DNA from: a virus
DNA length: 44,350 bases
Virus genome (UHGV): UHGV-0187309
Reading direction: 5' to 3' (one strand)
The translations under genes and the position numbers were made by a program. Below, piece after piece: positions 430 to 44,350 of this stretch. The notes under the pieces were generated by a model, which saw only the letters and a program-made list of their open reading frames with translations, did not search any database and was not told the DNA's origin. The first letter of the stretch is position 1. Every line of letters starts with the position of its first letter.

Positions 430-524
430 TACACGATCCGCACTTTTTCAGAAAAAAGTAGGTGTTTTGTTTCCTTTCATTTTGTAAAGAGTTACTTTTT
501 TCTCTTGACAAATCATGATAAGAT

Positions 525-574
525 GCGAAAAACTCTGTGCAAGCATCGGACATCAGTGTCCATTTGCACAGAGT
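525..574 (-). terminator. rho-independent terminator after the 608..1705 gene
   Basis: Perfect 11-bp stem ACTCTGTGCAA (532..542) / TTGCACAGAGT (564..574) with an inner GGACA/TGTCC stem, followed on the minus strand by TTTTTCGC. Confidence 0.5.
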
Positions 575-607
575 CTTATTCTATGATTTACTTTCTCTAC
601 GGACTTA

Positions 608-1705
608 TCACTCCGAATACTCTCTCGCCATCTCTTTTATCTTCTCAACCATCATATCGCTGATGCAGCTTCCGATCTTCTCTAAAGTGTCCTCGTCCAT
701 CAACCAGAAACCTTTCTTATTAAGGTGTGCATCAAGTATCTTATACATTTTCCACATATGCGGCTGATAACACTCTGGTATATCGCTGATGCAGGTCGGC
801 TCTATGTTTTCATCGGGATAAACGCCGCCATTGATCTTCAGCTTACCCTCGTTAGCGGCATTTACAAATAATATCGTCAGATCGTCTGTGAGCAATTTTG
901 CGAAGTAGTGGGCAAGCGCATACTCATCAATGGTGTGCGAATAGTAGTAAAGCGTTGCTTCAAGAAAATCCTCTAACTGATTTACTATCCCGCCCCATAC
1001 ATCTGTTGTCCAGTCGAGCATTTCCGGATGATAGCTGTCACCGCCGGAGCGAATCGTATAGCTGACATGGTTTGCGATTACTTCTGCGATAAACTCCTGC
1101 CAGAACCAGTAGCCTTCCTGCTTTCGGCGTTCACTGCTGTATCTGCAGCCGTCGATTGCTGCATCATATAAAGGAGAATCATCTATCAGACCGGGTTCAT
1201 TATAACGGTGCAGATCATCTACCTCTGCATTGATAGTGTAGAAATGCCCAAGTTCATGCCAGAAGAAATGTTCAAAATAAACACGCAGCTCGAAGTCGTC
1301 ATGCACAGGCAAGTCTGCCACAAGCTCCCTGCGAATCAGAATCGCATTGCCTTTCTCACCGTGTATGTATTCCATGATGGAGTCAGGCGGTTCCTCTGTA
1401 TGAGGACAGCCGATGCTTTTGATGATCTTCTTTCTTGTCCGGGAATAACTGCTTGCAGTTGAAGTATACACCGGCGGAAACGGAATGCCGAGATCAGGCA
1501 TGATCTGCTCAAACTGCATCTTTGCCATTTCAGCCCAGTAAAGAATCGTTGCTTCGGGTATCGGGCGCGGCTTTGGCAGTTCAGCAGGATGTGCGGTATC
1601 TTCGCCGTTAGTACGCTCGGCAAATTCAAGCATACTCTTTACAAAATCAAGCGGCAAGCCTTTTTCTTCTGCCAGCTTCTGTGCTTCGACTTCAAGTTCA
1701 TTCAT
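608..1705 (-). CDS. hypothetical protein with HExxH metallopeptidase-like motif
   Basis: 365-aa ORF. AAGGAG RBS 8 nt upstream of the ATG (reverse strand). The only recognisable motif is FFWHELGHFY (HExxH). Has its own promoter and terminator. Confidence 0.7.
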   Translation of the reverse strand: MNELEVEAQKLAEEKGLPLDFVKSMLEFAERTNGEDTAHPAELPKPRPIPEATILYWAEMAKMQFEQIMPDLGIPFPPVYTSTASSYSRTRKKIIKSIGCPHTEEPPDSIMEYIHGEKGNAILIRRELVADLPVHDDFELRVYFEHFFWHELGHFYTINAEVDDLHRYNEPGLIDDSPLYDAAIDGCRYSSERRKQEGYWFWQEFIAEVIANHVSYTIRSGGDSYHPEMLDWTTDVWGGIVNQLEDFLEATLYYYSHTIDEYALAHYFAKLLTDDLTILFVNAANEGKLKINGGVYPDENIEPTCISDIPECYQPHMWKMYKILDAHLNKKGFWLMDEDTLEKIGSCISDMMVEKIKEMAREYSE

Positions 1706-1746
1706 GCGCTTTACTCCTTGTAAAATAGTACAATAATTTATTTTTT

Positions 1747-1775
1747 ATTATAGCACAATTGCCGCCTGTTTTCAA
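1747..1775 (-). promoter_or_regulatory. sigma70-type promoter for the HExxH gene
   Basis: Reverse strand: TTGAAA (1775..1770), 17 nt, gTGcTATAAT (extended -10; hexamer 1752..1747). Confidence 0.5.
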
Positions 1776-1796
1776 GCCTTTAGAGAGCGTTTTCAT

Positions 1797-1843
1797 ATAA
1801 AAACTCAGGCTCTGTGAGAAGACACTATACCTCTCACAGAGCC
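1797..1843 (-). terminator. rho-independent terminator after the SRAP gene
   Basis: Perfect 12-bp stem GGCTCTGTGAGA (1808..1819) / TCTCACAGAGCC (1832..1843), 12-nt loop, followed on the minus strand by TGAGTTTTTA. Begins 9 nt after the stop at 1852. Confidence 0.55.
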
Positions 1844-1851
1844 TCTATTCA

Positions 1852-2487
1852 TTATACAGCCTTTTCCATCACTACCTCAGTCAAAGCCCTCTTGCATATC
1901 TCAGCAGGATTCCCGTTCGGCTTTATCCAGCTTTCAACGTCCTCTCTACTCAGTATCACCGGCATTCGGTCGTGGATGCTTCTCAGTTCCTCGGTTGCGT
2001 CCCGTGTGATTACCGCAAACACCGGGCAATTAACTCCGTTTCTCTCCTCGATCCTATACAACAGCCCAGCAAGCAGCGTAGATTCGGCTCCTTTCGGCTG
2101 TATCAGGTATTTATCGCCAACCTTCTTCTTTTTCCCGTCCGGACTCCTGAAATGCTCCCATTCAAAGTACCAACTGCTCGGAATTACGCATCTACTTCGG
2201 AACCATGAGTCCTTCCACATTTCCTTCTGGTCAGCCGTTTCGAGGCGGCAGTTCACGATTGGAGCATCGGTCGCGTCATGACTGAAACCCCAGAGCATCG
2301 GAAAAACTTCCATTCTTCCGTCCTTATTCGGTGCTAAAACCGCAGCAACATCAGTCGGACGCAGTTCACCGGACATAAACAGCGGTTTGCCGAGTTTTAC
2401 CATGATAGTATTCGCTAGCTCCAGTTTCTGTGCCCGTGTGATCAGCGGAGCGAACTGAGCAGGCTCTACATAGAAGCGTGTACACAT
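1852..2487 (-). CDS. SOS-response-associated peptidase (SRAP / YedK-HMCES family, abasic-site processing)
   Basis: 211 aa starting MCTRFYV (catalytic Cys2). Family landmarks NCRLET, WFRSRCVIPSSWYFEWEH, IHDRMPVIL. Confidence 0.85.
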   Translation of the reverse strand: MCTRFYVEPAQFAPLITRAQKLELANTIMVKLGKPLFMSGELRPTDVAAVLAPNKDGRMEVFPMLWGFSHDATDAPIVNCRLETADQKEMWKDSWFRSRCVIPSSWYFEWEHFRSPDGKKKKVGDKYLIQPKGAESTLLAGLLYRIEERNGVNCPVFAVITRDATEELRSIHDRMPVILSREDVESWIKPNGNPAEICKRALTEVVMEKAV

Positions 2488-20196: not shown

Positions 20197-20374
20197 AAAT
20201 AAATAAAAACAATAGAAAAGATAAGAAGAATAGAGGATTTTCACTGATTTGAACCATTACCCATTTTGCACTGTTTTGAACCTTGCCCGATGCTGTCACT
20301 GACAAAGAGTGTGTAAGCGACAAAGCGTGGCAAGGTCAAAATCCAATAAACAATCATACAGGAGGAACACGAAT

Positions 20375-21469
20375 ATGAGAATCATTACTTCAGAACAGGT
20401 ATCCGCAGGACATCCCGACAAGATCTGTGACCAAATCGCGGATGCCATCGTGACAGACTGCCTTCAGCATGACCGCAGCAGTCGTGTTGCGATAGAGTGT
20501 CTTTTCAAGAACCGCTGTCTTGTGATCGCCGGTGAGCTGACCAGTACCCATGAGCCGGACTACAAGGCTCTGGTGCAGCAGGTGTTCGACCGTATCAACA
20601 ACGGCGGAGCTGAGAACAGCGATGCGGGACTTGACTACAAGCTGGACTTCACCGCCGATGATCTGGACATTGCGATTCTGGTCGATCACCAGAGCAATGA
20701 CATTGCGCTCGGTGTGAATGTCGGCGGTGCAGGAGATCAGGGTATGATGTACGGCTATGCGACCAACGAAACGCCGGAGATGCTCCCGATCCCCTTCGTG
20801 CTGGCTACCAGATTTCTGGAACTGCTGAAAGCCTACCCCTGCCGTATGCTGAAAGCCGATGCAAAGGCACAGGTCAGCTATGACTATGACAGCGGTCGCA
20901 TTACCACCTTCCTCTGCTCGGTGCAGCATACACACGATGTGGATGTTGAGGACTTCAAGCCCATCATCGAAAAGCTGATGGTGAGAACGGCAACCGAATA
21001 CGGGCTGAATACAGACTTTGCAAAGCTCGTCAACCCGACCGGCAGATTTGTCATAGGCAGTTCCTTTGCGGACTGCGGCGTTACCGGACGCAAGCTCGCC
21101 TGCGATACCTATGGCGGTATCGGGCATATCGGCGGCGGTGCAATGTCCGGCAAAGATCCGTCTAAGGTTGACCGCAGCGGCGCATATGCAGCAAGAAAAA
21201 TCGCAAGGGATATCGTCAGCGCCGGATATTCAGACAAGGCAGAGGTGCAGATCGCATACGCCATCGGTGTGGCAGAGCCCGTATCCGTGTATGTAGAGAC
21301 TTTTGGCACGGAGCATCAGGATACGGAGTTCATCAACCAGTATGTTCGTGAGAATTATGACCTCACGCCGAGGGGAATCATCGAAGGGCTGCATCTGCTC
21401 GATGTGGACTATAACGCCATTTCCGCATACGGACACTTCGGAAAACAGAACCTTCCGTGGGAACTATAA
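20375..21469 (+). CDS. metK: S-adenosylmethionine synthetase
   Basis: Start at Met23 of the track ORF (AGGAGGA RBS). ITSEQVSAGHPDKICDQIADAI, GAGDQGMMYGYA, GGGAMSGKDPSKVDRSGAY. Confidence 0.92.
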   Translation: MRIITSEQVSAGHPDKICDQIADAIVTDCLQHDRSSRVAIECLFKNRCLVIAGELTSTHEPDYKALVQQVFDRINNGGAENSDAGLDYKLDFTADDLDIAILVDHQSNDIALGVNVGGAGDQGMMYGYATNETPEMLPIPFVLATRFLELLKAYPCRMLKADAKAQVSYDYDSGRITTFLCSVQHTHDVDVEDFKPIIEKLMVRTATEYGLNTDFAKLVNPTGRFVIGSSFADCGVTGRKLACDTYGGIGHIGGGAMSGKDPSKVDRSGAYAARKIARDIVSAGYSDKAEVQIAYAIGVAEPVSVYVETFGTEHQDTEFINQYVRENYDLTPRGIIEGLHLLDVDYNAISAYGHFGKQNLPWEL

Positions 21470-22932: not shown

Positions 22933-23389
22933 TGCGATACAGCTTGACAGCGGTGCAGAGGTCATGTACGGCAGCGATCAGATCTATGACACCTACCCCT
23001 GCCGCTTTCCGACTGTCGAGTTCCAGCTCATGGCAACGGATGCACTTGCGGAGGTCGCAGACCGCATCCGAATGGAGAAAGGCTATCTCCCGATGCATCC
23101 GAGGGACGGGCGCACGGACGATGTTGACAATGACGGCTGGTACGACTTTTATATCGGGATTAGCAAGCTCCCCAGCGATCATAAGGAATGCAAACTTGAC
23201 AGCAGCATTAGTTTCGTGGTCGTCAATTCAGATTCCGATGACAACGAGGATATGTACAGCATTGACCTGACTGAAACAGAGCAGGCGTATGTGTATGAAA
23301 TACTGAACCGGCAATGCCGGAGATATCACGGGAAGGACTGTGCCACGCTTCTGGCAGAGTCTGAAAAGGAGCTGATGGATACAGCATGA
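22904..23389 (+). CDS. hypothetical protein
   Basis: AGGAGGA RBS before ATG 22904. The stop overlaps the nrdD start (ATGA). Confidence 0.6.
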   Translation: MTLTENFIRDAIQLDSGAEVMYGSDQIYDTYPCRFPTVEFQLMATDALAEVADRIRMEKGYLPMHPRDGRTDDVDNDGWYDFYIGISKLPSDHKECKLDSSISFVVVNSDSDDNEDMYSIDLTETEQAYVYEILNRQCRRYHGKDCATLLAESEKELMDTA

Positions 23390-25527
23390 GGATAATAAAA
23401 CGAAACGGCGCTGAGGTGCCGTATGACTGCGAAAAGATACGAGCCGCAATATCAGCGGCAAATGATGAAGTGCCGGAGAAGATATCAGATACAGTGATCG
23501 GATTCATTGTCGGGAATGTAGAAAAACGCTGTCATGCCCTTGCAAGACCTGTCCATGTCGAAGAAGTCCAGGACATGGTTCTTGATGAACTGGACAAGGC
23601 CGAGGCTTACAAACTTGCACGGCACTACAGTGAGTACCGCCTGTGGCATGAGCAGCAGCGCCGTATGAACACCACCGACGGCAAGATTCTCAGTCTGCTG
23701 GAACGCAACAACGAGGAGGCAAAGCAGGAGAACGCCAACAAGAACCCCATCATCAACAGCACGCTCCGTGACTATATGGCGGGAGAAGTCAGTCGGGATA
23801 TATGTCGGCGCTTCCTGTTTCCGGAGGATGTGATCGCCGCCCATGATGACGGCATCATTCATGTGCATGACCTCGACTACATCGCAGAGCCGATGCACAA
23901 TTGCTGTCTGGTGAATCTGGAGGATATGCTTCAAAACGGCACAGTGGTATCCGGTACTATGATTGAGAAGCCGCACAGCTTTTCGACTGCCTGCAATATC
24001 GCAACGCAGATCATTGCACAGGTGGCATCAAATCAGTACGGCGGACAGACGGTATCTCTGGCACATCTTGCGCCTTTCGTGGATATCAGCCGACAGAAAA
24101 TTCGTGCCGAGGTGTTCGAGGATGTGAACTGCGACTGCGGTGCAAAGCTGTCTGAAAAAGAACTGGACTACATCGTAGAAAAGCGCGTGCGACGGGAAGT
24201 CAAGCGAGGCGTACAAACGATCCAGTATCAGATCAACACGCTCCTGACAACCAACGGTCAGACACCGTTCGTGACGGTATTCATGTATCTGGACGAGGCA
24301 CCGGAGGGACAGACCAGAGATGACCTTGCACTCATTATCGAGGAAACGCTGCTTCAGCGTATCGAGGGCGTGAAAAACGAGAAGGGCGTGTGGATCACAC
24401 CGGCATTCCCGAAGCTGATCTATGTTCTCGATGAGGACAACATTCAGCCCGGTTCCAAGTATTACTACCTCACCGAGCTTGCGGCGAAGTGTACCGCAAA
24501 GCGTATGGTTCCCGACTATATTTCCGCAAAGGTGATGAAACGTCTGAAGGGTGATGTGTATGCCTGCATGGGCTGCCGGTCATTCCTGACACCTTCTGCC
24601 GACCACAAATACTACGGCAGATTCAATCAGGGAGTCGTCACGATCAACCTTGTGGATGTTGCGTGTAGCGCAGGCGGAGACGAAGATAAATTCTGGCAGC
24701 TTCTTGATGAACGCTGCGAACTGTGCCGCAAGGCTCTGATGTGCAGGCATGAACGTCTGAAAGGTACGCCGTCCGATGTTGCACCGATCCTCTGGCAGTA
24801 TGGCGCACTTGCGAGACTGAAGAACGGTGAGGTCATTGACAATTTGCTGTATAACAACTACAGCACGATCTCCCTCGGCTATGCCGGCATCGCGGAAATG
24901 ACCTACCGCATGACAGGCTGTTCGCATACAGAGTCGGAGGGAAAATCCTTCGCCATTTCAGTGATGCATTTTCTGAACGATAAGTGCAGCAAATGGAGAG
25001 CTGAAAGCAATATCTCGTTCTCGCTATACGGCACGCCGATGGAATCTGTGACCTACAAATTTGCAAAGTGTCTGCAAAGGCGGCATGGTATTATTCCGCA
25101 CGTCACGGACAGGAGCTACATTACCAACAGCTATCATGTCCATGTGACAGAGCCGATCGACGCCTTCAGCAAGTTGTCCTTTGAAGCGGAGTTTCAGGAG
25201 CTTTCTCCCGGCGGTGCGATTTCGTATGTAGAAGTGCCGAACCTTCAGAACAACATTCCTGCGGTTCTGGCACTCATGAAACACATTTACGAAACGATTT
25301 TATATGCTGAACTCAACACTAAGTCCGACTACTGTCAGGCTTGTGGCTATGACGGGGAGATGCAGATCGTGGAAGAGGACGGCAAGCTGATCTGGGAATG
25401 CCCGAACTGCGGCAACCGTGACCAGCGGACAATGAATGTCTGCCGCCGCACCTGCGGATATCTCGGAACGCAGTTCTGGAATCAAGGGCGCACACAGGAG
25501 ATCGCAGAAAGGGTGATGCACCTGTGA
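23386..25527 (+). CDS. nrdD: anaerobic ribonucleoside-triphosphate reductase
   Basis: N-terminal ATP-cone (IIKRNGAEVPYDCEKI). C-terminal Zn site CQACGY...CPNCGN. Glycyl-radical tail RRTCGYLG. Confidence 0.93.
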   Translation: MRIIKRNGAEVPYDCEKIRAAISAANDEVPEKISDTVIGFIVGNVEKRCHALARPVHVEEVQDMVLDELDKAEAYKLARHYSEYRLWHEQQRRMNTTDGKILSLLERNNEEAKQENANKNPIINSTLRDYMAGEVSRDICRRFLFPEDVIAAHDDGIIHVHDLDYIAEPMHNCCLVNLEDMLQNGTVVSGTMIEKPHSFSTACNIATQIIAQVASNQYGGQTVSLAHLAPFVDISRQKIRAEVFEDVNCDCGAKLSEKELDYIVEKRVRREVKRGVQTIQYQINTLLTTNGQTPFVTVFMYLDEAPEGQTRDDLALIIEETLLQRIEGVKNEKGVWITPAFPKLIYVLDEDNIQPGSKYYYLTELAAKCTAKRMVPDYISAKVMKRLKGDVYACMGCRSFLTPSADHKYYGRFNQGVVTINLVDVACSAGGDEDKFWQLLDERCELCRKALMCRHERLKGTPSDVAPILWQYGALARLKNGEVIDNLLYNNYSTISLGYAGIAEMTYRMTGCSHTESEGKSFAISVMHFLNDKCSKWRAESNISFSLYGTPMESVTYKFAKCLQRRHGIIPHVTDRSYITNSYHVHVTEPIDAFSKLSFEAEFQELSPGGAISYVEVPNLQNNIPAVLALMKHIYETILYAELNTKSDYCQACGYDGEMQIVEEDGKLIWECPNCGNRDQRTMNVCRRTCGYLGTQFWNQGRTQEIAERVMHL

Positions 25528-25991: not shown

Positions 25992-26305
25992 GAGCCAGAC
26001 TGAAACCGCCGGGAGATGCTGTCCGCTGCGATGCCTGCGGATGTGCCTTTGTGCCGGAGCCGAAAATGCAGCGTGAGGGAGAGATCGAATACAGCTTCCT
26101 CAACTGTGATTACTGTGGCAAAGCGTATATCGTGTCTGTGACCGATGCCGCACTCCGCCGGAGCATCCGCAAGTACCGGACGCTTGCCGAAAAGCTGAAG
26201 GGCAAGCCGTTGAGTGAAGATACGCTCCGTGAGGTCACGGCGCTGAAGGATGCGAACACAAAAAGAGCCGCAGAGCTGCGGCAGATGTATATTCGGGAGG
26301 GATGA
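25988..26305 (+). CDS. hypothetical zinc-ribbon protein
   Basis: CDACGC...17 aa...CDYCGK. ATGA overlap with nrdG. Confidence 0.6.
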   Translation: MRARLKPPGDAVRCDACGCAFVPEPKMQREGEIEYSFLNCDYCGKAYIVSVTDAALRRSIRKYRTLAEKLKGKPLSEDTLREVTALKDANTKRAAELRQMYIREG

Positions 26306-26306
26306 G

Positions 26307-27578
26307 ATGAAAACAGCAGAACTTCGCATGATCCCTGTCTCGGAGCTGAAGCCTGCGGAATACAATCCGCGTAAAAAGCTGAAGCCCGGCGACAAGGAAT
26401 ACGAGAAGATCAAAAACAGCATCGAGGAATTCGGCTTTGCCGACCCGCTTGTTGTCAACGCCGACATGACGATCATCGGCGGACACCAGAGACTGACCGT
26501 AGCAACGGCGCTCGGTTACACGGAAGTTCCGTGTGCGGTGGTGGACATCGACAAAGTCCGTGAGAAGGCACTGAACATTGCGCTGAATAAGATCACGGGT
26601 GCATGGGACGAGAATCTTCTGGCGGAACTTCTCGAAGATATCCAGAGCAGCGATTTCGACCTCGGCAAGACCGGCTTTGATCCGCCGGAGATCGAGCAGC
26701 TTTTCAATGCCGTTCATGACAAGCAGGTCAGTGAGGACAGCTTCGATGTGGAGGAGGAGCTGCAAAAGCCGACATTCTCGCAGCCGGGAGATATCTGGAT
26801 TCTCGGCAGGCACAAAGTCATCTGCGGCGATAGTACAATCGCAGAGACATACACCAAGCTGATGGACGGGCAGAAGGCAAACCTCGTCCTGACCGATCCT
26901 CCGTACAATGTGGATGTTGAGGAAACTGCCGGAAAGATCATGAATGACAACATGAGCGACAGTGATTTCTATAGCTTCCTGCTTTCCGCTTACAAGTGTA
27001 TGTATGACAGTCTTGCCGATGACGGCAGCATTTATGTATGGCACGCCGACACCGAGGGGCTGAACTTCCGCAGAGCGTTCAAGGAGGCAGGCTTCCAGCT
27101 TTCTGGCTGCTGTATCTGGAAGAAGAATTCTCTGGTGCTGGGCAGAAGCCCCTATCAGTGGATTCATGAGCCGTGTCTCTTCGGGTGGAAACAGAAGGGC
27201 AAGCATCAGTGGTATGCCGACCGCAAGCAGACAACTGTATGGGAGTATGACAAGCCCAAGAGCAGCCCCGATCATCCGACCACAAAGCCTATCCCGCTGA
27301 TGGCGTACCCGATCAAGAACAGCACCATGACCAACGGCATCGTTCTCGATCCGTTCCTCGGCAGCGGTTCGACACTGATCGCCTGTTGCGAGACAGACCG
27401 TGTTTGTCGGGGCATCGAGCTTGATCCGAAGTTCGTGGATGTCATTGTCAAGAGGTATCTGGCATGGTGCCAAGAGAAGCAGACCGCCGAGGTCGCATAT
27501 GTCATTCGTGATGGACAGAAGCTCACCTATGAGGAGGCTATCGCAGCGATGCCGCAGGGCGGTGATGCAGTTGAGTGA
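26307..27578 (+). CDS. ParB-like nuclease domain fused to N6-adenine/N4-cytosine DNA methyltransferase
   Basis: ParB-N motifs IPVSELKPAEYNPRK and IIGGHQRL. MTase motif IV LVLTDPPYNV. Motif I VLDPFLGSGSTLIA. Confidence 0.88.
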   Translation: MKTAELRMIPVSELKPAEYNPRKKLKPGDKEYEKIKNSIEEFGFADPLVVNADMTIIGGHQRLTVATALGYTEVPCAVVDIDKVREKALNIALNKITGAWDENLLAELLEDIQSSDFDLGKTGFDPPEIEQLFNAVHDKQVSEDSFDVEEELQKPTFSQPGDIWILGRHKVICGDSTIAETYTKLMDGQKANLVLTDPPYNVDVEETAGKIMNDNMSDSDFYSFLLSAYKCMYDSLADDGSIYVWHADTEGLNFRRAFKEAGFQLSGCCIWKKNSLVLGRSPYQWIHEPCLFGWKQKGKHQWYADRKQTTVWEYDKPKSSPDHPTTKPIPLMAYPIKNSTMTNGIVLDPFLGSGSTLIACCETDRVCRGIELDPKFVDVIVKRYLAWCQEKQTAEVAYVIRDGQKLTYEEAIAAMPQGGDAVE

Positions 27579-28350: not shown

Positions 28351-28582
28351 ATGTGCGGTCGTGACCGCTTACACAGAGATTTCTATGCTCAAGGGCGACG
28401 ATCTGAAATATCTGTATGACTATCTTTCCGGCTTTATCGGCAGACCGGTGTATACACACGAGATTTCTGCTGTGGTGATGGCTTACAGAGAGCAGATCAG
28501 GGAGGACTTCCTCGATCTGTGCAGGAACGCAAAGGAGGCGGATGATGGATCAGAAACACTTGACTCTCGGCAGCTTATTTGA
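28337..28582 (+). CDS. hypothetical protein
   Basis: GGGGAGGA RBS. 81 aa. Overlaps both neighbouring MTase genes. Confidence 0.5.
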   Translation: MTKHECAVVTAYTEISMLKGDDLKYLYDYLSGFIGRPVYTHEISAVVMAYREQIREDFLDLCRNAKEADDGSETLDSRQLI

Positions 28583-31145
28583 CGGCTCCGGTGGCTTTCC
28601 GCTTGGCGGCATCCTTGCAGGGATCGAGCCGAAGTGGAGCAGCGAAATTGAACCATTCCCGGTGCTTGTCACGCACAAGCGGCTGCCGCAGGTGAAGCAC
28701 TACGGCGATGTATCCAAACTGAACGGAGCAGAGCTTCCGCCGGTGGATATCATCACCTTCGGCAGCCCGTGTCAGGATCTGTCCATAGCGGGCAAGCGCG
28801 CCGGAATCCATGACGGTGATCGGTCAAACCTGTTCTTTCAGGCGATCCGCATCATCAAAGAAATGAGGGATGCAACAAATGGACGATATCCGCGATACTG
28901 CGTCTGGGAAAATGTCCCCGGCGCTTTCTCATCCAACGGAGGAAACGACTTCAAGGCTGTCCTCGAAGCAGTTATCGGAGTTAAAGAAAAAGGGATCGAG
29001 GTGCCTGCGCCTGAAAATCACAGATGGGCAAAATCAGACGTATATCTGGGAGACGGATGGAGCGTGGCTTACCGAGTTTTCGATGCTCAATACTGGGGTG
29101 TCCCCCAACGCAGAGCAAGAATCTACCTTGTCGCAGATCTTGCTGGTGGAAGTGCCGGAGAAGTATTATTTAAGTCCGAAGGCGTGTCTGGGTATACTCC
29201 GCAGGGCTTCCGTGCGTGGCAAGGAGCTGCCGGAGGTGCTGAAGAAGGCACTGGAGAGACAGGCGGGCGGTCTGACGCTGGAGGTGGAACCCTCTGCCTG
29301 AATACACAGGGCAACAGCGGCGTCGGCATCACCGAGAACAAGGCTCTCGCACTGGTCGCACAGGATCATGGCAATCATCCGGCTGTGCTTCATGCGGTCG
29401 GTATCGACGGCTACAATGCTGCGGTCACCGATGATACGGCAGCAACGCTTGGTGTGAACTGCGGAATGTCCACAGGCAGAAACGGTGTCCTGCAGGCGGC
29501 GGGATTTTCCACAGAACACAGTGCAAAAGCAAGGAGCATCGGCTACGAGGAAGAGGTATCTCCCACACTTCGAGCCGGTGTTGTTCCGGCGGCAATGGAG
29601 TTATATGAAAATCATGGGCAGGACAGCAGATTCAGAGGACCTTTGGATGTAGCACAGCCTGTGACTGCTACCTACGGCATGGGCGGCAACAATCAGCCGC
29701 TTGTGGTAGAGAACAATCCCACGGACGGCAGAGCGAAGATCAATCCCGACGGTGTGTTTCAGACGCTCTGCGGACGAGCCGGAACAGGCGGAAACAACAC
29801 GCCGCTTGTTGCTGAACCGGTCACGCTGAAAATCAGGTCGGGATGTGAGGGCGGTGGCAAGGGTGCTTTATGGCAGACCGACAAGTCTGCTACGCTCGGC
29901 ACAAACAATGACCAGAGTGTATTTGTTCCGTTCGTCAAGGGAACACGTCCGCACTCTGCTGAAGAGGGGCAAACATGGAAACCCGGCGAGGTCGCCAATA
30001 CACTGAATACCTTTGATGTCGGTGAAAGTCGCTGCAATGAACTTGTGGTGGAAGAGCCGCAGATCAGGGCTTTCGGTGTATGCAGCAAGCATTCCAATGC
30101 GATGATGTCCGACAATCCGCACAGCGGATTCTATGAGGCGACCACAAGCAGAACGCTCGACCAAAGTGGTGGAAATTCTGTGACATCGAATCAGGGCGGC
30201 ATCTGCGTGGTAGCACCTGCGCCTGAAACCTTCGATGTGCGTTTCACATCAGACGGTACAAAAAACGCTCGTGGGCATTGCTATCCGACAGACATCTCCC
30301 GATGCCTTGATACGAGCGAGGGATCGCCAGACTCGAATCACGGCGGTGTCGCTGTGGTGGCTCTTGAACCGGGGGCTGCATCACGTGTCGGCGGTCATGT
30401 ATACAGTGACGGCAAAAGCGGTACGCTTCGAGCCAATGCCGGCGATAATCAGCAGGCTGTTGTGGTCGCCGAGCCGGAGACCTATGCTCTGCAAGGCTCG
30501 ATGATCGGTCGTGCCGACAAGAACGGTCCGCAGGGTGATGGCATCAACGAGGATGTGTGCTTTACGCTCAATACATCGGACAGACACGCCATTGCCGCAC
30601 CTGATCCGTCCTTCACAATTTCCCGCGACAACCATTTTGCCGTTTCGGAGGATGTATCCGTTACAGCCGTGGCAAGAGGCCCTGCGGCAGTCGCAGCACC
30701 GGCAGACCACTATTGCACCAGTAAGAATTCGCATCATACGGTCGCCGCCCATGAGCAGGCAAACACGCTGGTCGCTTCCGACTGGAAGGATCCGCCGCTT
30801 GTGAACGACCTTCCGAATGACGAGCCAGTATATATCGTTCGCCGCTTGACTCCGGTTGAGTGCGCCAGATTGCAGGGATTCCCTGACTGGTGGTGTGCCG
30901 ACCTTGCAATTACTGATCCTTCCGATGAGGAGATCGCCTTCTGGACGGAGGTCTGGGAGACATGGCGGCAGGTCACAAATCCCAAGGGCAAGCCGAAAAC
31001 GGAAAAGCAGATCCGCAAATGGCTGGCTGATCCGTACACGGATTCAGCGGAGTACAAGCTGTGGGGCAACGGTGTCTCAGAGCCGGTCGTATACTTCGTG
31101 CTTTCCGGCATCGCATGGGCAGCGCAGAGAGATACACAAAAGTGA
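28542..31145 (+). CDS. dcm: DNA (cytosine-5)-methyltransferase with ~570-aa repetitive variable (TRD) region
   Basis: Motif I LFDGSGGF, IV FGSPCQDLS, VI CVWENVPG, VIII QRRARIYLV, IX RRLTPVECARLQGFP, X LWGNGVSEPV. About 1.7 kb lies between motifs VIII and IX. Confidence 0.9.
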   Translation: MMDQKHLTLGSLFDGSGGFPLGGILAGIEPKWSSEIEPFPVLVTHKRLPQVKHYGDVSKLNGAELPPVDIITFGSPCQDLSIAGKRAGIHDGDRSNLFFQAIRIIKEMRDATNGRYPRYCVWENVPGAFSSNGGNDFKAVLEAVIGVKEKGIEVPAPENHRWAKSDVYLGDGWSVAYRVFDAQYWGVPQRRARIYLVADLAGGSAGEVLFKSEGVSGYTPQGFRAWQGAAGGAEEGTGETGGRSDAGGGTLCLNTQGNSGVGITENKALALVAQDHGNHPAVLHAVGIDGYNAAVTDDTAATLGVNCGMSTGRNGVLQAAGFSTEHSAKARSIGYEEEVSPTLRAGVVPAAMELYENHGQDSRFRGPLDVAQPVTATYGMGGNNQPLVVENNPTDGRAKINPDGVFQTLCGRAGTGGNNTPLVAEPVTLKIRSGCEGGGKGALWQTDKSATLGTNNDQSVFVPFVKGTRPHSAEEGQTWKPGEVANTLNTFDVGESRCNELVVEEPQIRAFGVCSKHSNAMMSDNPHSGFYEATTSRTLDQSGGNSVTSNQGGICVVAPAPETFDVRFTSDGTKNARGHCYPTDISRCLDTSEGSPDSNHGGVAVVALEPGAASRVGGHVYSDGKSGTLRANAGDNQQAVVVAEPETYALQGSMIGRADKNGPQGDGINEDVCFTLNTSDRHAIAAPDPSFTISRDNHFAVSEDVSVTAVARGPAAVAAPADHYCTSKNSHHTVAAHEQANTLVASDWKDPPLVNDLPNDEPVYIVRRLTPVECARLQGFPDWWCADLAITDPSDEEIAFWTEVWETWRQVTNPKGKPKTEKQIRKWLADPYTDSAEYKLWGNGVSEPVVYFVLSGIAWAAQRDTQK

Positions 31146-37929: not shown

Positions 37930-38099
37930 CGACGACACACGCACCACGTTGCCTCGTGTGGGGCGGTGCCGGGGAGATGCGTACAGCTTGCCCCTGCGAA
38001 AAGCCGCCTTACACGGCGCGTTCTGGCGCGTCCTATACGATGTACAATTCCGCCCGACTTCCCGCCTCATGTTTGTCACATTTATTTTGCAGACAGACG

Positions 38100-38128
38100 T
38101 GGACTTTTCTGCGAAAAGACGGTAATAT
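38100..38128 (+). promoter_or_regulatory. cassette promoter P7
   Basis: TGGACT 38100..38105, 17 nt, TAATAT 38123..38128. Confidence 0.55.
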
Positions 38129-38175
38129 GTGACTACCGCAAGAGAAGCGGAATCAATCAAAAGGAGCGAATCTAC

Positions 38176-38529
38176 ATGAAAATTCTGGTATGCGAACCCG
38201 GCAAGCACCCCTACGTCAAGGACATCGAGTCGGGGCTGGAGAACCTTCAGCACGAGGTGGACGGACTGATTCAGGCCCTCTACCCATTTTCCGAAGAGGC
38301 GGCTGTTGTGTGCAACGAAGAAGGGCTGTTCCGCGATGACCTCGAATGGAACAGAACGGTCGATCCCTATGGTCCGATCAAGGGAACATTCTTCATTTGT
38401 GGGCTCGGCTTTGAAGATTTTACAGGACTGACCGATGAACAGATCGAAAAGTACACTAAGCTCTTCTGGCCTCCTGAGCTTTTCATCCCGACACCGAACG
38501 GCATGGTGGTGCTTCACATTGTGGAATGA
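38176..38529 (+). CDS. DUF3846-like protein
   Basis: MKILVCEPGKHPYVKDIESGLENLQHEVDGLIQALYPFSEEAAVVCNEEGLF...GTFFICG. Confidence 0.72.
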   Translation: MKILVCEPGKHPYVKDIESGLENLQHEVDGLIQALYPFSEEAAVVCNEEGLFRDDLEWNRTVDPYGPIKGTFFICGLGFEDFTGLTDEQIEKYTKLFWPPELFIPTPNGMVVLHIVE

Positions 38530-38632
38530 CCGCAACAGGGGCAGGGCTTCGGCTCTGCTCCGCACTATTCCCCGGTCATAATGTACACAACTGAACGCCG
38601 AAAAATGCAGAAATGATCGTGATTACTCACGC

Positions 38633-38661
38633 TTGATAATGTAGGCAAGAAGAGTTATACT
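38633..38661 (+). promoter_or_regulatory. cassette promoter P8
   Basis: TTGATA 38633..38638, 17 nt, TATACT 38656..38661. Confidence 0.5.
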
Positions 38662-38718
38662 GTGTACAACGGAAGGGCGGAAAGCCCAGCCGAAAACGAA
38701 AATGCGGAGGTACACACC

Positions 38719-38898
38719 ATGAAAACGAAGCAGGAACTGATCGAGAAGGCAAAGAAAGAGTGGGGCGAGACTTGGAACGAGGGCATGATCGAGTACGATG
38801 CCGAGTACAACGAGTACATCGTCTGGGTAGGCAAGCCGGACATCTACAAAGCCTTCTTCGATGCCGACACCCTCAGATGCATTGGCACGAAGTGCTGA
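38719..38898 (+). CDS. small hypothetical protein (59 aa)
   Basis: CGGAGGTAC RBS. MKTKQELIEKAKKEWGETWNEG... Confidence 0.55.
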   Translation: MKTKQELIEKAKKEWGETWNEGMIEYDAEYNEYIVWVGKPDIYKAFFDADTLRCIGTKC

Positions 38899-38953
38899 GA
38901 ACAACCGCCGCCCTTCGGGGCGGCACAACACCAATACTAAGGAGGACATTTAC

Positions 38954-39226
38954 ATGAGCGAGAACACAGAAAAGCGCGATGCAGCCGAAGAACTAGAACT
39001 TACCGATGCACAGGCAGACCGCAACGATGACATCTACGAGGCAGCTTTTGAATTCTGCAAGGTGCTGACCGAGAACCCCGACCTCGAATGGGACATGGCG
39101 TTCCTCGGTGAGATCGCCGACCTTGCCGCTGGCATCATGACCGAGCAGGGACACAAGGTGCGGTTCCCCAGTGTGGTCACCGAGCAGGACGGCACGCAGT
39201 ACATTGAAGAATACTACGGCGGCTGA
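38954..39226 (+). CDS. hypothetical acidic protein
   Basis: AAGGAGGA RBS. 90 aa. Confidence 0.6.
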   Translation: MSENTEKRDAAEELELTDAQADRNDDIYEAAFEFCKVLTENPDLEWDMAFLGEIADLAAGIMTEQGHKVRFPSVVTEQDGTQYIEEYYGG

Positions 39227-39427
39227 TCGGCAAAACGGAGCAGTCCTTCTGCGGAGGGGCTGTTCCACGCCACGTTCGCTTGTGTGGGGGGCTTACGGCT
39301 TTCTGCGGATATCTTGCCCCGCGATAAAAGCCGCCCACACGGCGCATTTGTGTGCCTCCTGTGGCAAGGCATAATATGTACAACAACCGACAAAAAATCG
39401 CCTTGCACATTCTGGTAGTTTAGCCGC

Positions 39428-39456
39428 TTGATATATCTGCCGAAAAGAGTTATAGT
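39428..39456 (+). promoter_or_regulatory. cassette promoter P9
   Basis: TTGATA 39428..39433, 17 nt, TATAGT 39451..39456. Confidence 0.5.
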
Positions 39457-39512
39457 GTGTACAACGGAACGGGAAACCGAGCCGAAAACTACGAAAGAAC
39501 GAGGTAAACACT

Positions 39513-39749
39513 ATGTGGCACGAAGGCACGATTCTGGCACCGACCAAGGAAGGCAAGACGGTGGTTCACTACTGGGCAAAGGTCTACGACGAGGGCAGCC
39601 AGTACGGCATCAACGAGGGCAGAATCAGTAAACTGACACTCAAGGAGAATGGCAAGGTCATCTACAACTATGACAGAGGCGAGGATGTACCCGAGCAGAA
39701 CGAGGCTGCGGAGATTGCCCTTGCGATCCTGATGTACGAGTACAAGTAA
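39513..39749 (+). CDS. hypothetical protein
   Basis: 78 aa. RBS-like CGAGGTAA 7 nt upstream. Confidence 0.6.
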   Translation: MWHEGTILAPTKEGKTVVHYWAKVYDEGSQYGINEGRISKLTLKENGKVIYNYDRGEDVPEQNEAAEIALAILMYEYK

Positions 39750-39837
39750 ATAGAACGGTCGGTAGGCGGTAGCATTAAGCCGCCCATCCAAACCAAGACG
39801 GACACACATATAAATTCAAGGTGGATATACATAGGAG

Positions 39838-39866
39838 AGGCTTGCAGCACGCAGGCCTTTTCTTTA
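39838..39866 (+). terminator. rho-independent terminator immediately upstream of terS
   Basis: AGGCTTGC agcac GCAGGCCT (one G.U pair) followed by TTTTCTTT. Confidence 0.5.
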
Positions 39867-39897
39867 TGCAGATTTTTTGAGAAAAGGAGTGATGCGG

Positions 39898-40371
39898 ATG
39901 GCTCAGAGAGGCAGAAAACCGACGCCGACAGCAATCAAGGAACTGGAAGGCAATCCCGGAAAACGACCGCTGAATGATGCAGAGCCGAAGCCGGAACGCA
40001 AGGCACCGCCCTGTCCGAAGTGGCTGGAGCCCGAAGCAAAAAAGGAATGGCGCAGGCTGTCAAAGCAACTGGAGCAGATTGGTGTGCTGACCGAGGTCGA
40101 TCAGGCGGCATTCGCATCCTACTGTCAGGCATACGCACGATGGAAAGAAGCCGAGGAATTCATGACCCAGCACGGCACGATCGTAAAAACAAAATCAGGT
40201 TACTGGCAGCAGGTTCCGCAGGTATCCATTGCGCAAACTTATCTGAAGATCATGAACAAGATCGCAGAGCAGTTTGGCCTGACCCCGGCGGCAAGAAGCC
40301 GTATCACTGCCGGCGCAGATATGAAAAACGCTGCCGTTGACGATATGGATGAACTTCTCGGAGGTGGCTGA
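39898..40371 (+). CDS. terS: terminase small subunit (P27 family)
   Basis: MAQRGRKPTPTAIKELEGNPGKRPLN...PKWLEPEAKKEWRRL...FGLTPAARSRI. AAGGAGTG RBS. Confidence 0.85.
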   Translation: MAQRGRKPTPTAIKELEGNPGKRPLNDAEPKPERKAPPCPKWLEPEAKKEWRRLSKQLEQIGVLTEVDQAAFASYCQAYARWKEAEEFMTQHGTIVKTKSGYWQQVPQVSIAQTYLKIMNKIAEQFGLTPAARSRITAGADMKNAAVDDMDELLGGG

Positions 40372-43037
40372 TGGCGAGAACGGCAAAGGCAAGAGAAAGA
40401 CCTGCCAACTATCCGAAACTGAAGGATTATAAACCGACACGCTTTATGCTGCCGGAATCGCACTACGATGCGGCAAAGGCTGACCGAGCTGTGCGGTTCA
40501 TCGAGAATCTCTGCCATACCAAAGGACGCTGGGCAGGCAAACCGTTCTGGCTGCTTCCGTGGCAGGAACAGATCATCCGGGATATTTTCGGCATCGTCAA
40601 AGAGGACGATATGCGGCAATTTCGTACCGCCTATGTCGAAATTCCAAAGAAAAATGGGAAGCAGCTTGCACTGGATACACCGATCCCGACTCCGCAGGGA
40701 TTCACCAATATGGGAGATCTGAAGGTCGGAGATACAGTATTCGATGAAAACGGCATTCCGTGCCATGTGGTTGCGAAAAGTCCTGTGGATGATACAGAGC
40801 AAGCCTACAAGCTGACCTTCAAGGACGGCACCTCGATCATTGCCGGGGAAAGGCATCTGTGGAACTGTCAGTATATTTACGGCAAACGCAAGGATGTTCT
40901 CTGGACGACCGGCGAGATCTATCGCAGGACAACGGAATACAGACAGCGTTTTTCCGACAGACCACAGACAAAGCGGGATTCCCTTATCCGAATTCCGGTG
41001 TGCGGTGTCCTTCAGACAGAAGCGGCAGTTTTACCGATTGATCCGTATCTGTACGGCTACTGGCTCGGAAACGGTAATGTGACCATGCCGGAGATCACTG
41101 TTCGGACGGAGGATGTCGAGGATATCATCTCGAATATTCCGTATAAGGTACACAACCGTTATCCGCAGAAATGCGGCGGCAGTGAGATCATAAAGTACAA
41201 TGAACTGAAAGCAGTACTACTTGACAGCTTCCGTGAAAAGAAGATCCGACCAGAATATCTGAGGGCATCCGCAGAGCAGAGATGGGCATTACTGCAAGGG
41301 CTTATGGATTCGGACGGCTGTATCGGCGAACGCAAAGGGCAAAGTGTGTATGTCACAACGCTGCGAGAGCTGGCGCTTTCCGTCAGAGAACTGCTGTGGT
41401 CACTCGGCATCAAAAATGCAGTGAAATGTGAGCCTTCTACACGGCATGGGTGGCCGACCGGCGAGATTTTGTATATCGTCCGTTTTACAACCTTTGATGG
41501 CCAACCGACATCAAGGCTTAAACGCAAAAATACACGCACACAGGCGCGGTTAAAGGAAACTCGCTCCTGTTTTCATTATCTGCTGGATATTCAACCTGTA
41601 AATCATCCTGTAAAAATGCAGTGCATTCAGGTGGACAGTCCGAGTCACCAATATCTCGCAGGACCGTCATTTGTGCCTACGCACAACAGTGAGCTTGCAG
41701 CGGCAATTGCACTGTATCTGCTCTACGCCGACAACGAGCCGTCTGCTGAGGTCTACGGCGCTGCTGCTGATCGTGGGCAGGCATCCATTGTATTCGATGT
41801 CGCCAAAAGAATGGTTGAGATGACACCGGCACTTCTGAAACGCTCAAAAATCATGGCGGCGACAAAGCGTCTGGTGAATTACAGTAATGTTGGCTTTTAT
41901 CAGGTGCTTTCAGCGGAAGTCGGTACAAAGCACGGATTGAATGTATCCGGTCTGGTTTTGGATGAACTTCATGCCCAACCGAACCGCAGCCTTGTGGATG
42001 TTCTCACAAAGGGTTCCGGTGATGCCCGTACTCAGCCGCTGTACTTCCTGATCACAACCGCCGGAACGGATCGCAACAGCATCTGCTACGAGTATCACAC
42101 GAAAGCAAAAGATATTCTGGACGGCAGGCGCATTGATCCGTCCTTCTATCCTGTGATCTACGGCTTGAACGATGATGACGACTGGAACGCAGAGGAGTCA
42201 TGGTATAAGGCAAATCCCTCGCTCGGATACACTATCGCCATCGACCGAGTCCGCGATGCTCACCGGGAAGCCCTTACAAATCCCGCTGAAGAAAATGTAT
42301 TCCGTCAGCTGAGGCTTGACCAGTGGGTAGGCAGTGCGGTGGCATGGATTCCGGAGCATATCTACGACAGGGGCAATCTTCCGATCGACCTCGAAAAGCT
42401 CCGGGGACGGGAGTGCTACGCAGGTCTTGACCTATCCAGCACATCGGATATCACGGCATTTGTGCTGGTGTTCCCTCCGCTGCATGACGGCGAGAAATAC
42501 ATCGTTGTCCCGCACTTCTGGCTGCCGAGAGAAACGCTCGATTTGCGAGTACGGCGAGACCATGTTCCCTACGATGTATGGGAGCGCATGGGATTATTTC
42601 ATATCACCGAGGGCAATGTGGTCGATTACAATTTCGTGCGGAAAACGATCAACGAGCTGCACACGATGTACAACATCAAGGAAATTGCTGCCGACCGCTG
42701 GAATGCCACACAGCTTATCACAGACCTTGAGGGAGACGGATTTACCGTTGTTCCGATGGGTATGGGCTTCAAGGATATGTCCCCGCCGATGAAGGAACTG
42801 TACAAGCTCATACTCGAGGGGCAGTTTATCCACGGCGGCAACCCTGTACTCCGCTGGATGGCAGGAAATGTGGTCGCTGAAATTGATGCAGCGGAGAACA
42901 TCAAACCAAGTAAAAAGAAAAGTACAGAAAAGATTGACGGTATCGTGGCATGGATCATGGCACTTGACCGCTGCATCCGCCACGAAATGCAGGGCAGTGT
43001 CTATGACGAACCCGGCCACGATCTTGTGGTCATCTGA
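40371..43037 (+). CDS. terL: terminase large subunit (Terminase_1 type) interrupted by an intein in the Walker A loop
   Basis: Exteins join as EIPKKNGK|SELAAAIALYLLYADNEPSAEVYGAAADRGQA. Downstream LVLDELHA (Walker B) and a nuclease domain. 546 aa without the insert. Confidence 0.92.
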   Translation: MARTAKARERPANYPKLKDYKPTRFMLPESHYDAAKADRAVRFIENLCHTKGRWAGKPFWLLPWQEQIIRDIFGIVKEDDMRQFRTAYVEIPKKNGKQLALDTPIPTPQGFTNMGDLKVGDTVFDENGIPCHVVAKSPVDDTEQAYKLTFKDGTSIIAGERHLWNCQYIYGKRKDVLWTTGEIYRRTTEYRQRFSDRPQTKRDSLIRIPVCGVLQTEAAVLPIDPYLYGYWLGNGNVTMPEITVRTEDVEDIISNIPYKVHNRYPQKCGGSEIIKYNELKAVLLDSFREKKIRPEYLRASAEQRWALLQGLMDSDGCIGERKGQSVYVTTLRELALSVRELLWSLGIKNAVKCEPSTRHGWPTGEILYIVRFTTFDGQPTSRLKRKNTRTQARLKETRSCFHYLLDIQPVNHPVKMQCIQVDSPSHQYLAGPSFVPTHNSELAAAIALYLLYADNEPSAEVYGAAADRGQASIVFDVAKRMVEMTPALLKRSKIMAATKRLVNYSNVGFYQVLSAEVGTKHGLNVSGLVLDELHAQPNRSLVDVLTKGSGDARTQPLYFLITTAGTDRNSICYEYHTKAKDILDGRRIDPSFYPVIYGLNDDDDWNAEESWYKANPSLGYTIAIDRVRDAHREALTNPAEENVFRQLRLDQWVGSAVAWIPEHIYDRGNLPIDLEKLRGRECYAGLDLSSTSDITAFVLVFPPLHDGEKYIVVPHFWLPRETLDLRVRRDHVPYDVWERMGLFHITEGNVVDYNFVRKTINELHTMYNIKEIAADRWNATQLITDLEGDGFTVVPMGMGFKDMSPPMKELYKLILEGQFIHGGNPVLRWMAGNVVAEIDAAENIKPSKKKSTEKIDGIVAWIMALDRCIRHEMQGSVYDEPGHDLVVI
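40662..41687 (+). mobile_element. 342-aa intein (apparent class 3, Gln at position 1) with LAGLIDADG endonuclease domain
   Basis: QLALDTPIPTPQGF... block A. GERHLW (Trp two residues after the block B His). LYGYWLGNGN and LLQGLMDSDGCIG (LAGLIDADG pair). MQCIQVDSPSHQYLAG (block F Cys). VPTHN|S at the C-terminal junction. Confidence 0.78.
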
Positions 43038-43052
43038 CAGGAGGTAATGTTT

Positions 43053-44350
43053 ATGAGCTTTTTAAGCTGGCTCGGCATCAGCAAGCCGAGAGATGCGCCG
43101 ATGCTGCCTGATATTCAGGACAATGTCCGTGATTCTGGAAATCTGTTCGTATTCGGCATGACGCACAGCGGTGAACGTGTCGATGAGCGCACGGCGATGC
43201 AGATCGTGACTGTTTACGCCTGTGTTCGACTGCTCTCCAACACCATCGCAGGACTGCCGCTGCACCTATACAGATACACCGGCAAAGGCGATGATAAGGA
43301 ATTAGCCATTGACCATCCGCTGTACAAAATACTCTATCGGCAGCCGAATCCCGAAATGAGTTCATTCTCGTTCTGGGAAGCACTGATGTGCCACCTTTTA
43401 CTATGGGGCAACGCCTATGCACAGATTGTCCGGGACGGCAAAAACGGCATCCTCGGTCTCTATCCCCTGCTTCCCGAAAATGTCGAGATCGACCGTGATC
43501 CGAAATCCGGCGACCTGATCTACACTTACCACGCCTACACCGACGAAAAGCCCGGTGAGCATGACAAGGATATTATCTTCCGCAGGGATGAAATCTTACA
43601 CATCCCCGGTCTGGGATTCAATGGACTGGTCGGTTTCTCACCGATAGCGATGATGAAAAATGCACTCGGTGCGGTCATGGCAGTAGAGCGATACGGCAGC
43701 GCCTTCTTCAAAAACGGAGCGCAGCCTGCCGGAGTTCTCGAACATCCGGGCGTGCTGAAGGATCCGCAGAAGATCCGCGACAACTGGACAAAGGCATACG
43801 GCGGCGCACGGAACGCACACCGCATCGCAGTCCTCGAAGAAGGTATGCAGTATAAGCCAATCTCCCTGCCGCCGGAGGATTCGCAGTTTCTGTCCACAAG
43901 AGAATTCGATGTGGAGGAAATCTGCCGGATGTTTCAGGTTCCGCCGCATCTGGTACAAGACCTCAAACGCAGTACCTTCAATAACATCGAGCATCAGGGT
44001 ATTGCATTTGTGCAGTATTCTCTTATGCCGTGGATCATTCGCATCGAAAAGGGCATCATGAAAGACCTTCTTCTGGAGGAAGAACAGAATGTATATTTCC
44101 CGAAATTCAATGTGGACGGTCTGATGCGCGGCGACTACCAGAGCCGAATGAACGCCTACGCTATCGGTGTCGGCAACGGCTTTATGTCGCCCAATGATGT
44201 GCGCCGTCTTGAAAATATGGACTTGATCCCTGACGATCAGGGCGGCAACGACTACTACCTGAACGGCTCGTATAACAAGCTGGAGGATGCAGGTGCGGCA
44301 TATGCTCTGAATCAGCCGCAGGAACAGCCGGATACCGAGGAACAGGATGA
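43053..44350 (+). CDS. portal protein (HK97 family), C-terminally truncated by the window edge
   Basis: Own translation from ATG 43053 (AGGAGGTAA RBS): MSFLSWLGISKPRDAP...TAMQIVTVYACVRLLSNTIAGLPLHLY...LLLWGNAYAQIVRDGKNGILGLYPL...FFKNGAQPAGVLEHPG... Open to the last base. Confidence 0.9.
   Translation, partial: MSFLSWLGISKPRDAPMLPDIQDNVRDSGNLFVFGMTHSGERVDERTAMQIVTVYACVRLLSNTIAGLPLHLYRYTGKGDDKELAIDHPLYKILYRQPNPEMSSFSFWEALMCHLLLWGNAYAQIVRDGKNGILGLYPLLPENVEIDRDPKSGDLIYTYHAYTDEKPGEHDKDIIFRRDEILHIPGLGFNGLVGFSPIAMMKNALGAVMAVERYGSAFFKNGAQPAGVLEHPGVLKDPQKIRDNWTKAYGGARNAHRIAVLEEGMQYKPISLPPEDSQFLSTREFDVEEICRMFQVPPHLVQDLKRSTFNNIEHQGIAFVQYSLMPWIIRIEKGIMKDLLLEEEQNVYFPKFNVDGLMRGDYQSRMNAYAIGVGNGFMSPNDVRRLENMDLIPDDQGGNDYYLNGSYNKLEDAGAAYALNQPQEQPDTEEQD

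Follow-up and report, generated by a model that had tools for sequence, protein, structure and literature searches.

The DNA analysed here, referred to as the window, is a stretch of 44,350 nucleotides from the virus genome UHGV-0187309, and the subject of this work is its terL gene, which encodes the large subunit of the terminase (TerL). terL lies as an intact frame inside an intact terS-terL-portal module and its product is a precursor in which residues 98-439, as placed by translation and coordinate arithmetic, form an insert flanked by ...YVEIPKKNGK and SELAAAIALY.... This insert is very probably a class 3 intein that is mobile and holds an in-frame LAGLIDADG homing endonuclease, seated at the 'classic' P-loop site GK/S (here and below the slash marks the insertion point) in the TerL of a phage or prophage of gut Bacillota.

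With the insert kept in the protein, the Pfam TerL_ATPase match covers profile positions 37-177 only and scores 71.1 bits, because residues 98-439 are foreign to the terminase. Joining of the two exteins gives a 546-residue TerL in which the same match is contiguous (positions 1-177 of 178, 90.0 bits) and TerL_nuclease scores 163.2 bits; both Terminase_1-type domains (PF03354 and PF20441) are present in the spliced protein, the ATPase with its Walker A motif being N-terminal and the nuclease C-terminal. The NCBIfam search was uninformative and returned weak, below-threshold matches to intein-containing exception models only. An identical 888-residue protein is held in NCBI nr as DAZ37244.1, 'MAG TPA: Terminase large subunit [Caudoviricetes sp.]', a name that refers to the terminase large subunit only, so that the intein goes unmentioned in the public annotation. 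The exact protein is found on 11 contigs, the longest of 102 kb, and its 90% cluster comprises 217 members.

Boundaries and allele states of the insert

In order to compare allele states, the joined exteins were searched against the protein collection and the 120 closest TerL proteins were taken, at 82-98% identity. The site is insert-free, reading PKKNGK/SELAAA, in 55 of them, while 36 carry a mini-intein of 157 amino acids and 29 an intein of 338-342 amino acids, always at the same bond. The inserts begin with Gln (Glu in one) and end in THN/S. As judged at the protein level the boundaries are unambiguous, and no shift of either junction is possible, K and N being different residues, as are Q and S. 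An earlier reading of the window, made from the sequence alone (the sequence-only reading), had placed an insert at 40662-41687, splitting the Walker A motif into PKKNGK/SELAAA, opening with a CAG codon and QLALDTPIPT and ending in THN/S; the translation gives exactly this, and the 55 insert-free alleles confirm the junctions. All further sequence details given in that reading were checked as well and are correct.

Empty terL alleles were also found as DNA at four loci (L060-L063), the site in L060 being ...AAGAAAAATGGAAAG/TCTGAGCTTGCGGCAGCG... on the nucleotide level. For Ser+1 the window and the mini-intein alleles use AGT, the four empty ones TCT or AGC. These empty alleles are 94-97% identical to the window in protein but only 78-87% in DNA; hence the sampled empty sites come from more distant phages, and the endonuclease target that they present may differ from that of the window. 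The closest DNA relatives of terL are L064 and L065 (terL at 301..2412), whose exteins are 96-99.6% identical in nucleotides and which carry the 157-residue mini-intein. The first 204 nucleotides of this mini-intein (68 residues) are 98.5% identical to the window intein and the last 120 (40 residues) 92.5% identical, with an unrelated middle part, so that simple loss of the endonuclease by deletion does not explain it. Another mini-intein, P0079 (169 amino acids), is a clean deletion of residues 127-298. This polymorphism of presence, absence and endonuclease loss in near-identical TerL proteins is the pattern expected of a homing element. As for base composition, the G+C content is ~ 0.50 in the intein and ~ 0.52 in its flanks, giving no compositional signal of a recent invasion.

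Two candidates for new insertion sites were rejected, namely the junction GKS/ELALDT in P0091 and the missing Ser-Glu in L053: both are decayed copies with frameshifts and stop codons.

Class 3 signature and the nested endonuclease domain

Class 3 inteins are defined by a non-nucleophilic residue 1 together with a Trp-Cys-Thr (WCT) signature, terminase P-loops being already named among their hosts (Tori et al. 2010, PMC2807308), and they have been reported to be monophyletic (Tori et al. 2010). In a phmmer sequence search of the PDB the best match of the insert is the class 3 Msm DnaB-1 intein (6BS8, E=1.3e-21), followed by the MchDnaB1 intein (6RIX and 6RIY, ~ 1e-18), a similarity that lies well outside chance. 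The alignment to 6BS8 is free of gaps in both splicing parts, with query residues 2-71 on chain residues 2-71 and query residues 317-342 on chain residues 114-139. His65, Trp67, Cys321 and Asn342 align on His65, Trp67, Cys118 and Asn139 of Msm DnaB-1, which are the experimentally studied positions B:10, B:12, F:4 and G:7 (PMC5222942). Furthermore, by similarity search, all best PDB matches and the 647 phage tblastn matches are class-3-type inteins.

The same residues stand out when the window intein is aligned with 120 relatives. His B:10 and Trp B:12 are found in 101/101 members each, Cys F:4 in 65/69 and Thr G:5 in 65/68, followed by the terminal His and Asn in 62/66 each; at residue +1 there are 55 Ser and 3 Thr, and residue -1 is Lys in 92/94. 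The window intein thus combines a residue 1 that is not Cys, Ser or Thr with Trp B:12, Cys F:4, Thr G:5 and Ser+1. Both the W-C-T signature proposed by the sequence-only reading and the class 3 assignment drawn from it hold up, since Trp67, Cys321 and Thr340 are present, belong to near-invariant columns and are backed by the alignment to Msm DnaB-1 and by the PDB matches. An AlphaFold2 model built from 36 sequences (predicted local distance difference test, pLDDT, 92.3; predicted template modelling score, pTM, 0.90) was compared with known structures using Foldseek: PI-SceI (template modelling score TMq 0.72) resembles the model as a whole, the class 3 DnaB inteins (TMt 0.83-0.86) are matched by the splicing domain and I-DmoI by the middle part.

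The motifs LYGYWLGNGN and LLQGLMDSDG had been taken beforehand for a LAGLIDADG pair and hence for an endonuclease. Pfam agrees, with a LAGLIDADG_3 match of 31.6 bits against a cut-off of 22.5 (E=2e-7), and so does the fold, in which two LAGLIDADG motifs sit on a double alpha-beta-beta-alpha-beta-beta-alpha arrangement and for which Foldseek finds PI-SceI, PI-PfuI and I-DmoI. An acidic residue does not close each motif, as Asp218 is present in motif 2 but motif 1 has Asn137 where relatives read WLGDG. At this position the family has Asn in 84/96 and Asp in 8, and a wider class 3 sample Asp in 148/173 and Asn in 19. Asn is also seen in motif 1 of Acidovorax phage ACF1. Once excised, the intein would cut or nick insert-free terL alleles and in this way be copied into them (homing). 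The part of the gene that codes for the endonuclease also holds an antisense open reading frame (ORF) of 126 amino acids at 41159..41539 (-), which has no sign of being a gene and is most likely spurious. The coordinates of all features are collected in Table 1.

Table 1. Position of the terL precursor, its intein and the adjoining genes in the window
Feature	Position	Strand	Details and basis
Terminase small subunit gene, immediately upstream of terL	39877..40371	+	PHROG 83, E=4e-59
terL precursor ORF (N-extein, intein and C-extein in one frame)	40371..43037	+	888 amino acids, stop codon included; ORF list, Pfam TerL_ATPase and TerL_nuclease
N-extein, residues 1-97	40371..40661	+	Walker A PKKNGK at its end, Lys97 being residue -1; Lys in 92/94 family members
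Class 3 intein (predicted), 342 amino acids, Gln1 to Asn342	40662..41687	+	Insert-free alleles, homology to PDB 6BS8/6RIX/6RIY, AlphaFold2 model, Foldseek
Codon 1, CAG, Gln1 (non-nucleophilic N-terminus)	40662..40664	+	Translation
N-terminal splicing region, intein residues 1-105	40662..40976	+	Block A QLALDTPIPTP, block B GERHLW; gap-free alignment to 6BS8 2-71
Block B GERHLW, residues 62-67	His65 (B:10) 40854..40856; Trp67 (B:12) 40860..40862	+	Translation
Nested LAGLIDADG homing endonuclease (predicted), residues ~ 106-300	40977..41561	+	Pfam LAGLIDADG_3; fold matches PI-SceI, I-DmoI
Motif 1 LYGYWLGNGN, residues 130-139	41049..41078	+	Asn137 at the acid position, codon 41070..41072
Motif 2 LLQGLMDSDG, residues 210-219	41289..41318	+	Asp218
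C-terminal splicing region, residues 301-342	41562..41687	+	Block F VKMQCIQVD, block G VPTHN; alignment to 6BS8 114-139
Cys321 (F:4) in KMQCIQVD	41622..41624	+	Aligned on Cys118 of Msm DnaB-1
PTHN end, Thr340-His341-Asn342	41679..41687	+	Followed by Ser, AGT, 41688..41690
C-extein, remaining ATPase domain and nuclease domain	41688..43037	+	Starts with Ser+1 (AGT, 41688..41690), runs through the stop codon
Portal protein gene, runs past the window end	43050..44350	+	PHROG 12, E=7e-139

Selection, the proposed splicing route and the residue at position 1

Compared with its three closest genomes (90-94% amino acid identity), the intein has a ratio of non-synonymous to synonymous substitution rates (dN/dS) of 0.04-0.07 overall, and by part of 0.01-0.04 for the N-terminal splicing region, 0.05-0.09 for the endonuclease and 0.03-0.15 for the C-terminal splicing region; in more distant comparisons saturation is reached at the synonymous sites. 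Strong purifying selection on the intein is directly established, as are its anatomy, its homology, its exact boundaries and the presence/absence polymorphism. The earlier argument that the intein must splice agrees with this selection, with the conservation of the catalytic residues and with the coexistence of insert-free alleles, and taking these together the window copy is very likely to be active.

Several points weigh against this picture. To judge by its sequence, with Asn137 in place of the catalytic Asp in motif 1, it is uncertain that the enzyme makes a full double-strand cut; given the dN/dS of the endonuclease, it may be a natural nickase and not a dead enzyme. A literature search found no experiment on this terL intein or on any class 3 intein with Gln1. 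Furthermore, decayed copies of the same family are present in some bacterial genomes, namely L053 (Selenomonas ruminantium ATCC 12561), L054 (S. artemidis DSM 19719) and P0091, and family membership alone is therefore no guarantee of activity. With their stop codons, frameshifts and internal C-extein deletion, these three copies look like remnants of defective prophages in cultured strains.

The decayed copies, and the fact that a non-splicing class-3-like intein has been documented (PMC3196547), speak for the idea that the window intein is itself inactive or decaying, in the manner of the class-3-like pseudogene Arth_1007 of Arthrobacter FB24, within a defective prophage in which no splicing is needed. 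However, the 888-residue frame is unbroken and all catalytic residues are there, the dN/dS values are those of a protein under constraint, the exact protein recurs on its 11 contigs within a cluster of 217 members, and the adjoining terS and portal genes are intact, which makes an inactive intein very improbable.

The route by which an active intein would splice is inferred, in every chemical step, from the homologous Bethlehem DnaB and Msm DnaB-1 inteins; the endonuclease activity is likewise a prediction. The thiol of Cys321 (F:4), aided by His65 and Trp67, would attack the Lys97-Gln98 bond, giving a thioester-branched intermediate on Cys321, from which the N-extein would be handed to the hydroxyl of Ser+1. 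Cyclisation of Asn342, aided by His341, would then free the intein, and an O-to-N acyl shift would remake the Walker A motif PKKNGKS and yield an active TerL.

Splicing could also be imagined to proceed without the block F thioester, either by a class-2-like attack of Ser+1 on the Lys97-Gln98 bond or with a chemical involvement of Gln1. Indeed, class 2 (KlbA) inteins show that a direct attack by residue +1 is possible without a nucleophile at residue 1 (PMC4031507), and the occurrence of Gln or Glu at residue 1 in 82 of 93 relatives hints at some role. Nevertheless, Cys+1, Asp F:4 and the absence of the WCT signature are the marks of class 2, whereas here WCT is near-invariant and residue +1 is Ser; Cys F:4 is absolutely required in the class 3 prototype (PMC2807308); and, by general peptide chemistry, cyclisation of the Gln side chain would break the bond after Gln1 and not the splice junction. 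We thus find such a route hardly credible and retain attack by Cys321 as the probable first step.

The chance that an error of sequencing or assembly at codon 1 hides a true class 1 intein with Cys1 or Ser1 is vanishingly small, this reading being already refuted by the surveys of codon 1 and residue 1 and by the 11 contigs on which the identical protein was assembled, and a change from CAG to TGY taking three substitutions. In 50 loci, which are independent assemblies from genomes of different bacterial species, codon 1 is CAG in 32, CAA in 12, GAG in 4 and GAA in 2, that is CAG or CAA in 44/50 and GAG or GAA in 6/50. Likewise, in the 93 relatives that span the N-terminal junction residue 1 is Q in 71, E in 11, A in 8, L in 2 and M in 1, with no case of C, S or T. 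A sequencing error does not account for Gln1, and the check for such an error that the sequence-only reading had called for is settled by these counts.

A full-text literature search for Gln1 in class 3 inteins found none, and for Gln1 in inteins generally it returned unrelated residue numbers only; therefore the distribution of residue 1 was counted directly. The N-terminal splicing region was scanned against 1.84 billion representative proteins, with 7,730 matches at E<=1e-3. H-x-W and C...T-x-N were both found in 179 of the 211 intein starts detected, and residue 1 was tallied over the best 150 proteins of the scan, which hold 179 inteins with H-x-W and C...T-x-N-[STC]. Residue 1 in these is A in 101, P in 19, L in 12, M in 8, G in 7, Q in 6, S in 6, D in 5, E in 5, N in 3 and R in 2, five other types occurring once each, so that class-3-type inteins have at least 16 residue types at this position, Gln among them. 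Gln1 is also present in three large proteins other than TerL (P0333, P0352 and P0367). Position 1 is Arg, Ala, Cys, Ala and Leu in five relatives from cultured phages and Ala in the Msm and Mch DnaB1 inteins, and in the class 3 prototype, the Bethlehem DnaB intein, it is Pro, the mutants P1A, P1S and P1C of which keep splicing (PMC2807308).

Gln1 is therefore ordinary, inside both the published definition of the class and the public variation. It is no nucleophile and fills a slot that is open to many non-nucleophilic residues in class 3. The rarity that had been implied for it was overstated, as the definition itself includes a residue 1 that is no nucleophile (PMC2807308) and as the tally and the three non-TerL hosts show it elsewhere. 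What is left is a mild surprise only, namely that Gln or Glu is held within this lineage though the class tolerates almost anything at residue 1. Since this hold extends to all 50 genomes, with both Gln codons in use although synonymous sites are saturated, it is conceivable, though unlikely, that the side chain of residue 1 has a selected role beyond the needs of class 3 chemistry, through a hydrogen bond to the scissile Lys-Gln bond or a pyroglutamate that blocks the N-terminus of the excised intein. As a separate matter, and again with low probability, the conserved Asn in motif 1 could mark a natural LAGLIDADG nickase that homes via a nick.

The wide scan also brought up a group of large proteins of 1,100-1,900 amino acids (P0260-P0401), many of which hold two or three class-3-type inteins (P0260, P0270 and P0261 for instance), often with a GK P-loop preceding one intein and an acidic residue preceding another.

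Setting, distribution and comparison with known inteins

Apart from the terminase and portal genes, the window resembles a phage replication and modification module with a repressor, PolA, an SNF2 helicase, a D5-type primase, MetK, NrdD and two methylases. Auxiliary genes at 20309..21469, 23386..25527 and 26250..27578 (+) encode an S-adenosylmethionine synthetase, an anaerobic ribonucleotide reductase (NrdD with an ATP-cone) and a fusion of ParB with an N6/N4 DNA methylase, and such genes are typical of phages of gut anaerobes. Two large proteins have large regions without explanation. The C-5 cytosine methylase (867 amino acids, 28542..31145, +) has its best Pfam match in its first 143 residues, at profile positions 3-129 of 324, out of a total of three matched stretches, and the family A DNA polymerase (961 amino acids, 10602..13487, +) has its best match at residues 683-814. 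No further intein or endonuclease domain was found by Pfam, at E up to 0.05, in the polymerase, the methylase, the primase or a protein of 642 amino acids.

The intein family is found in metagenome-assembled genomes and isolates of Oscillospiraceae, Lachnospiraceae, Acidaminococcus, Megasphaera, Selenomonas, Faecalicatena contorta, Fonticella and others, Negativicutes being included, as well as in Caudoviricetes contigs of the human gut. By tblastn, none of the cultured phages searched has an intein closer than 36% identity, and no near-identical DNA turned up when 38000..44350 was compared by megablast with 50,697 phage records. The family is hence a lineage that is public though undescribed, within a well-described kind of intein known since 2010. 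It leaves the knowledge of splicing chemistry unchanged, and it provides a clean and well-populated class 3 case from phages and prophages whose hosts are Bacillota of the human and animal gut, outside the actinobacterial world in which the class has mostly been studied. As insert-free, mini-intein and endonuclease alleles coexist, the homing cycle of inteins can conveniently be studied in it under natural conditions, and it can be mined for small class 3 mini-inteins of 147-169 amino acids.

Set against known systems, the terL intein shares with the class 2 (KlbA) inteins the lack of a nucleophile at the N-terminus. The inteins of class 2 are archaeal, have Ala1, Cys+1 and Asp F:4 but no WCT, and follow a three-step mechanism (PMC4031507), and going by its residues the terL intein falls outside class 2.

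The same host protein is shared with class 3 TerL inteins of cultured phages, namely Mycobacterium phage Gaia (gp2; tblastn 33% identity, E=2e-41 to the window intein), Gordonia phage Zipp, Vibrio phage 489E54-1 and Rhodobacter phage RcKickapoo, the last three of which also have the junction GK/x...THN/S or T and Cys F:4. They differ from the window intein in being only 33-36% identical to it and in having Leu, Ala or Arg at residue 1 in the three P-loop examples. Moreover, their hosts are Actinomycetota or Pseudomonadota and most keep Asp in motif 1, whereas the window family belongs to phages of gut Bacillota. The P-loop insertion site of actinobacteriophage TerL is known as 'TerL1-a', and five representative TerL inteins, including that of Gaia gp2, have been shown to splice (Kelley et al. 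2016, PMC5050341). The TerL inteins of BAKA and Bethlehem cut insert-free terL DNA (PMC5050341).

The class 3 prototype, the DnaB intein of Bethlehem (MP-Be DnaB), is of about equal size (341 amino acids) and likewise has a nested LAGLIDADG endonuclease, WCT, a His-Asn end and a hydroxyl residue at +1 (PMC2807308). Its residue 1 is non-nucleophilic as well and is tolerant of substitution in the prototype (PMC2807308). Unlike the terL intein it has Pro1 and Thr+1, and its insertion point, in a helicase gene, follows ...VSQDQ instead of the P-loop Lys.

The closest solved relatives are the Msm DnaB-1 (6BS8) and M. chimaera DnaB1 (6RIX, 6RIY) inteins, which belong to class 3 and have solved structures and tested splicing. 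In contrast to the terL intein they have Ala1, are mini-inteins of 139-145 amino acids without an endonuclease and reside in a bacterial replicative helicase; Cys48 of Msm DnaBi1, which forms a regulatory disulfide, corresponds to Ala48 in the terL intein. Yet they share with it His65, Trp67, Cys F:4 and Thr-His-Asn, blocks A, B, F and G that align without gaps, an insertion point behind the Lys of the P-loop (GK/) and a +1 residue that bears a hydroxyl.

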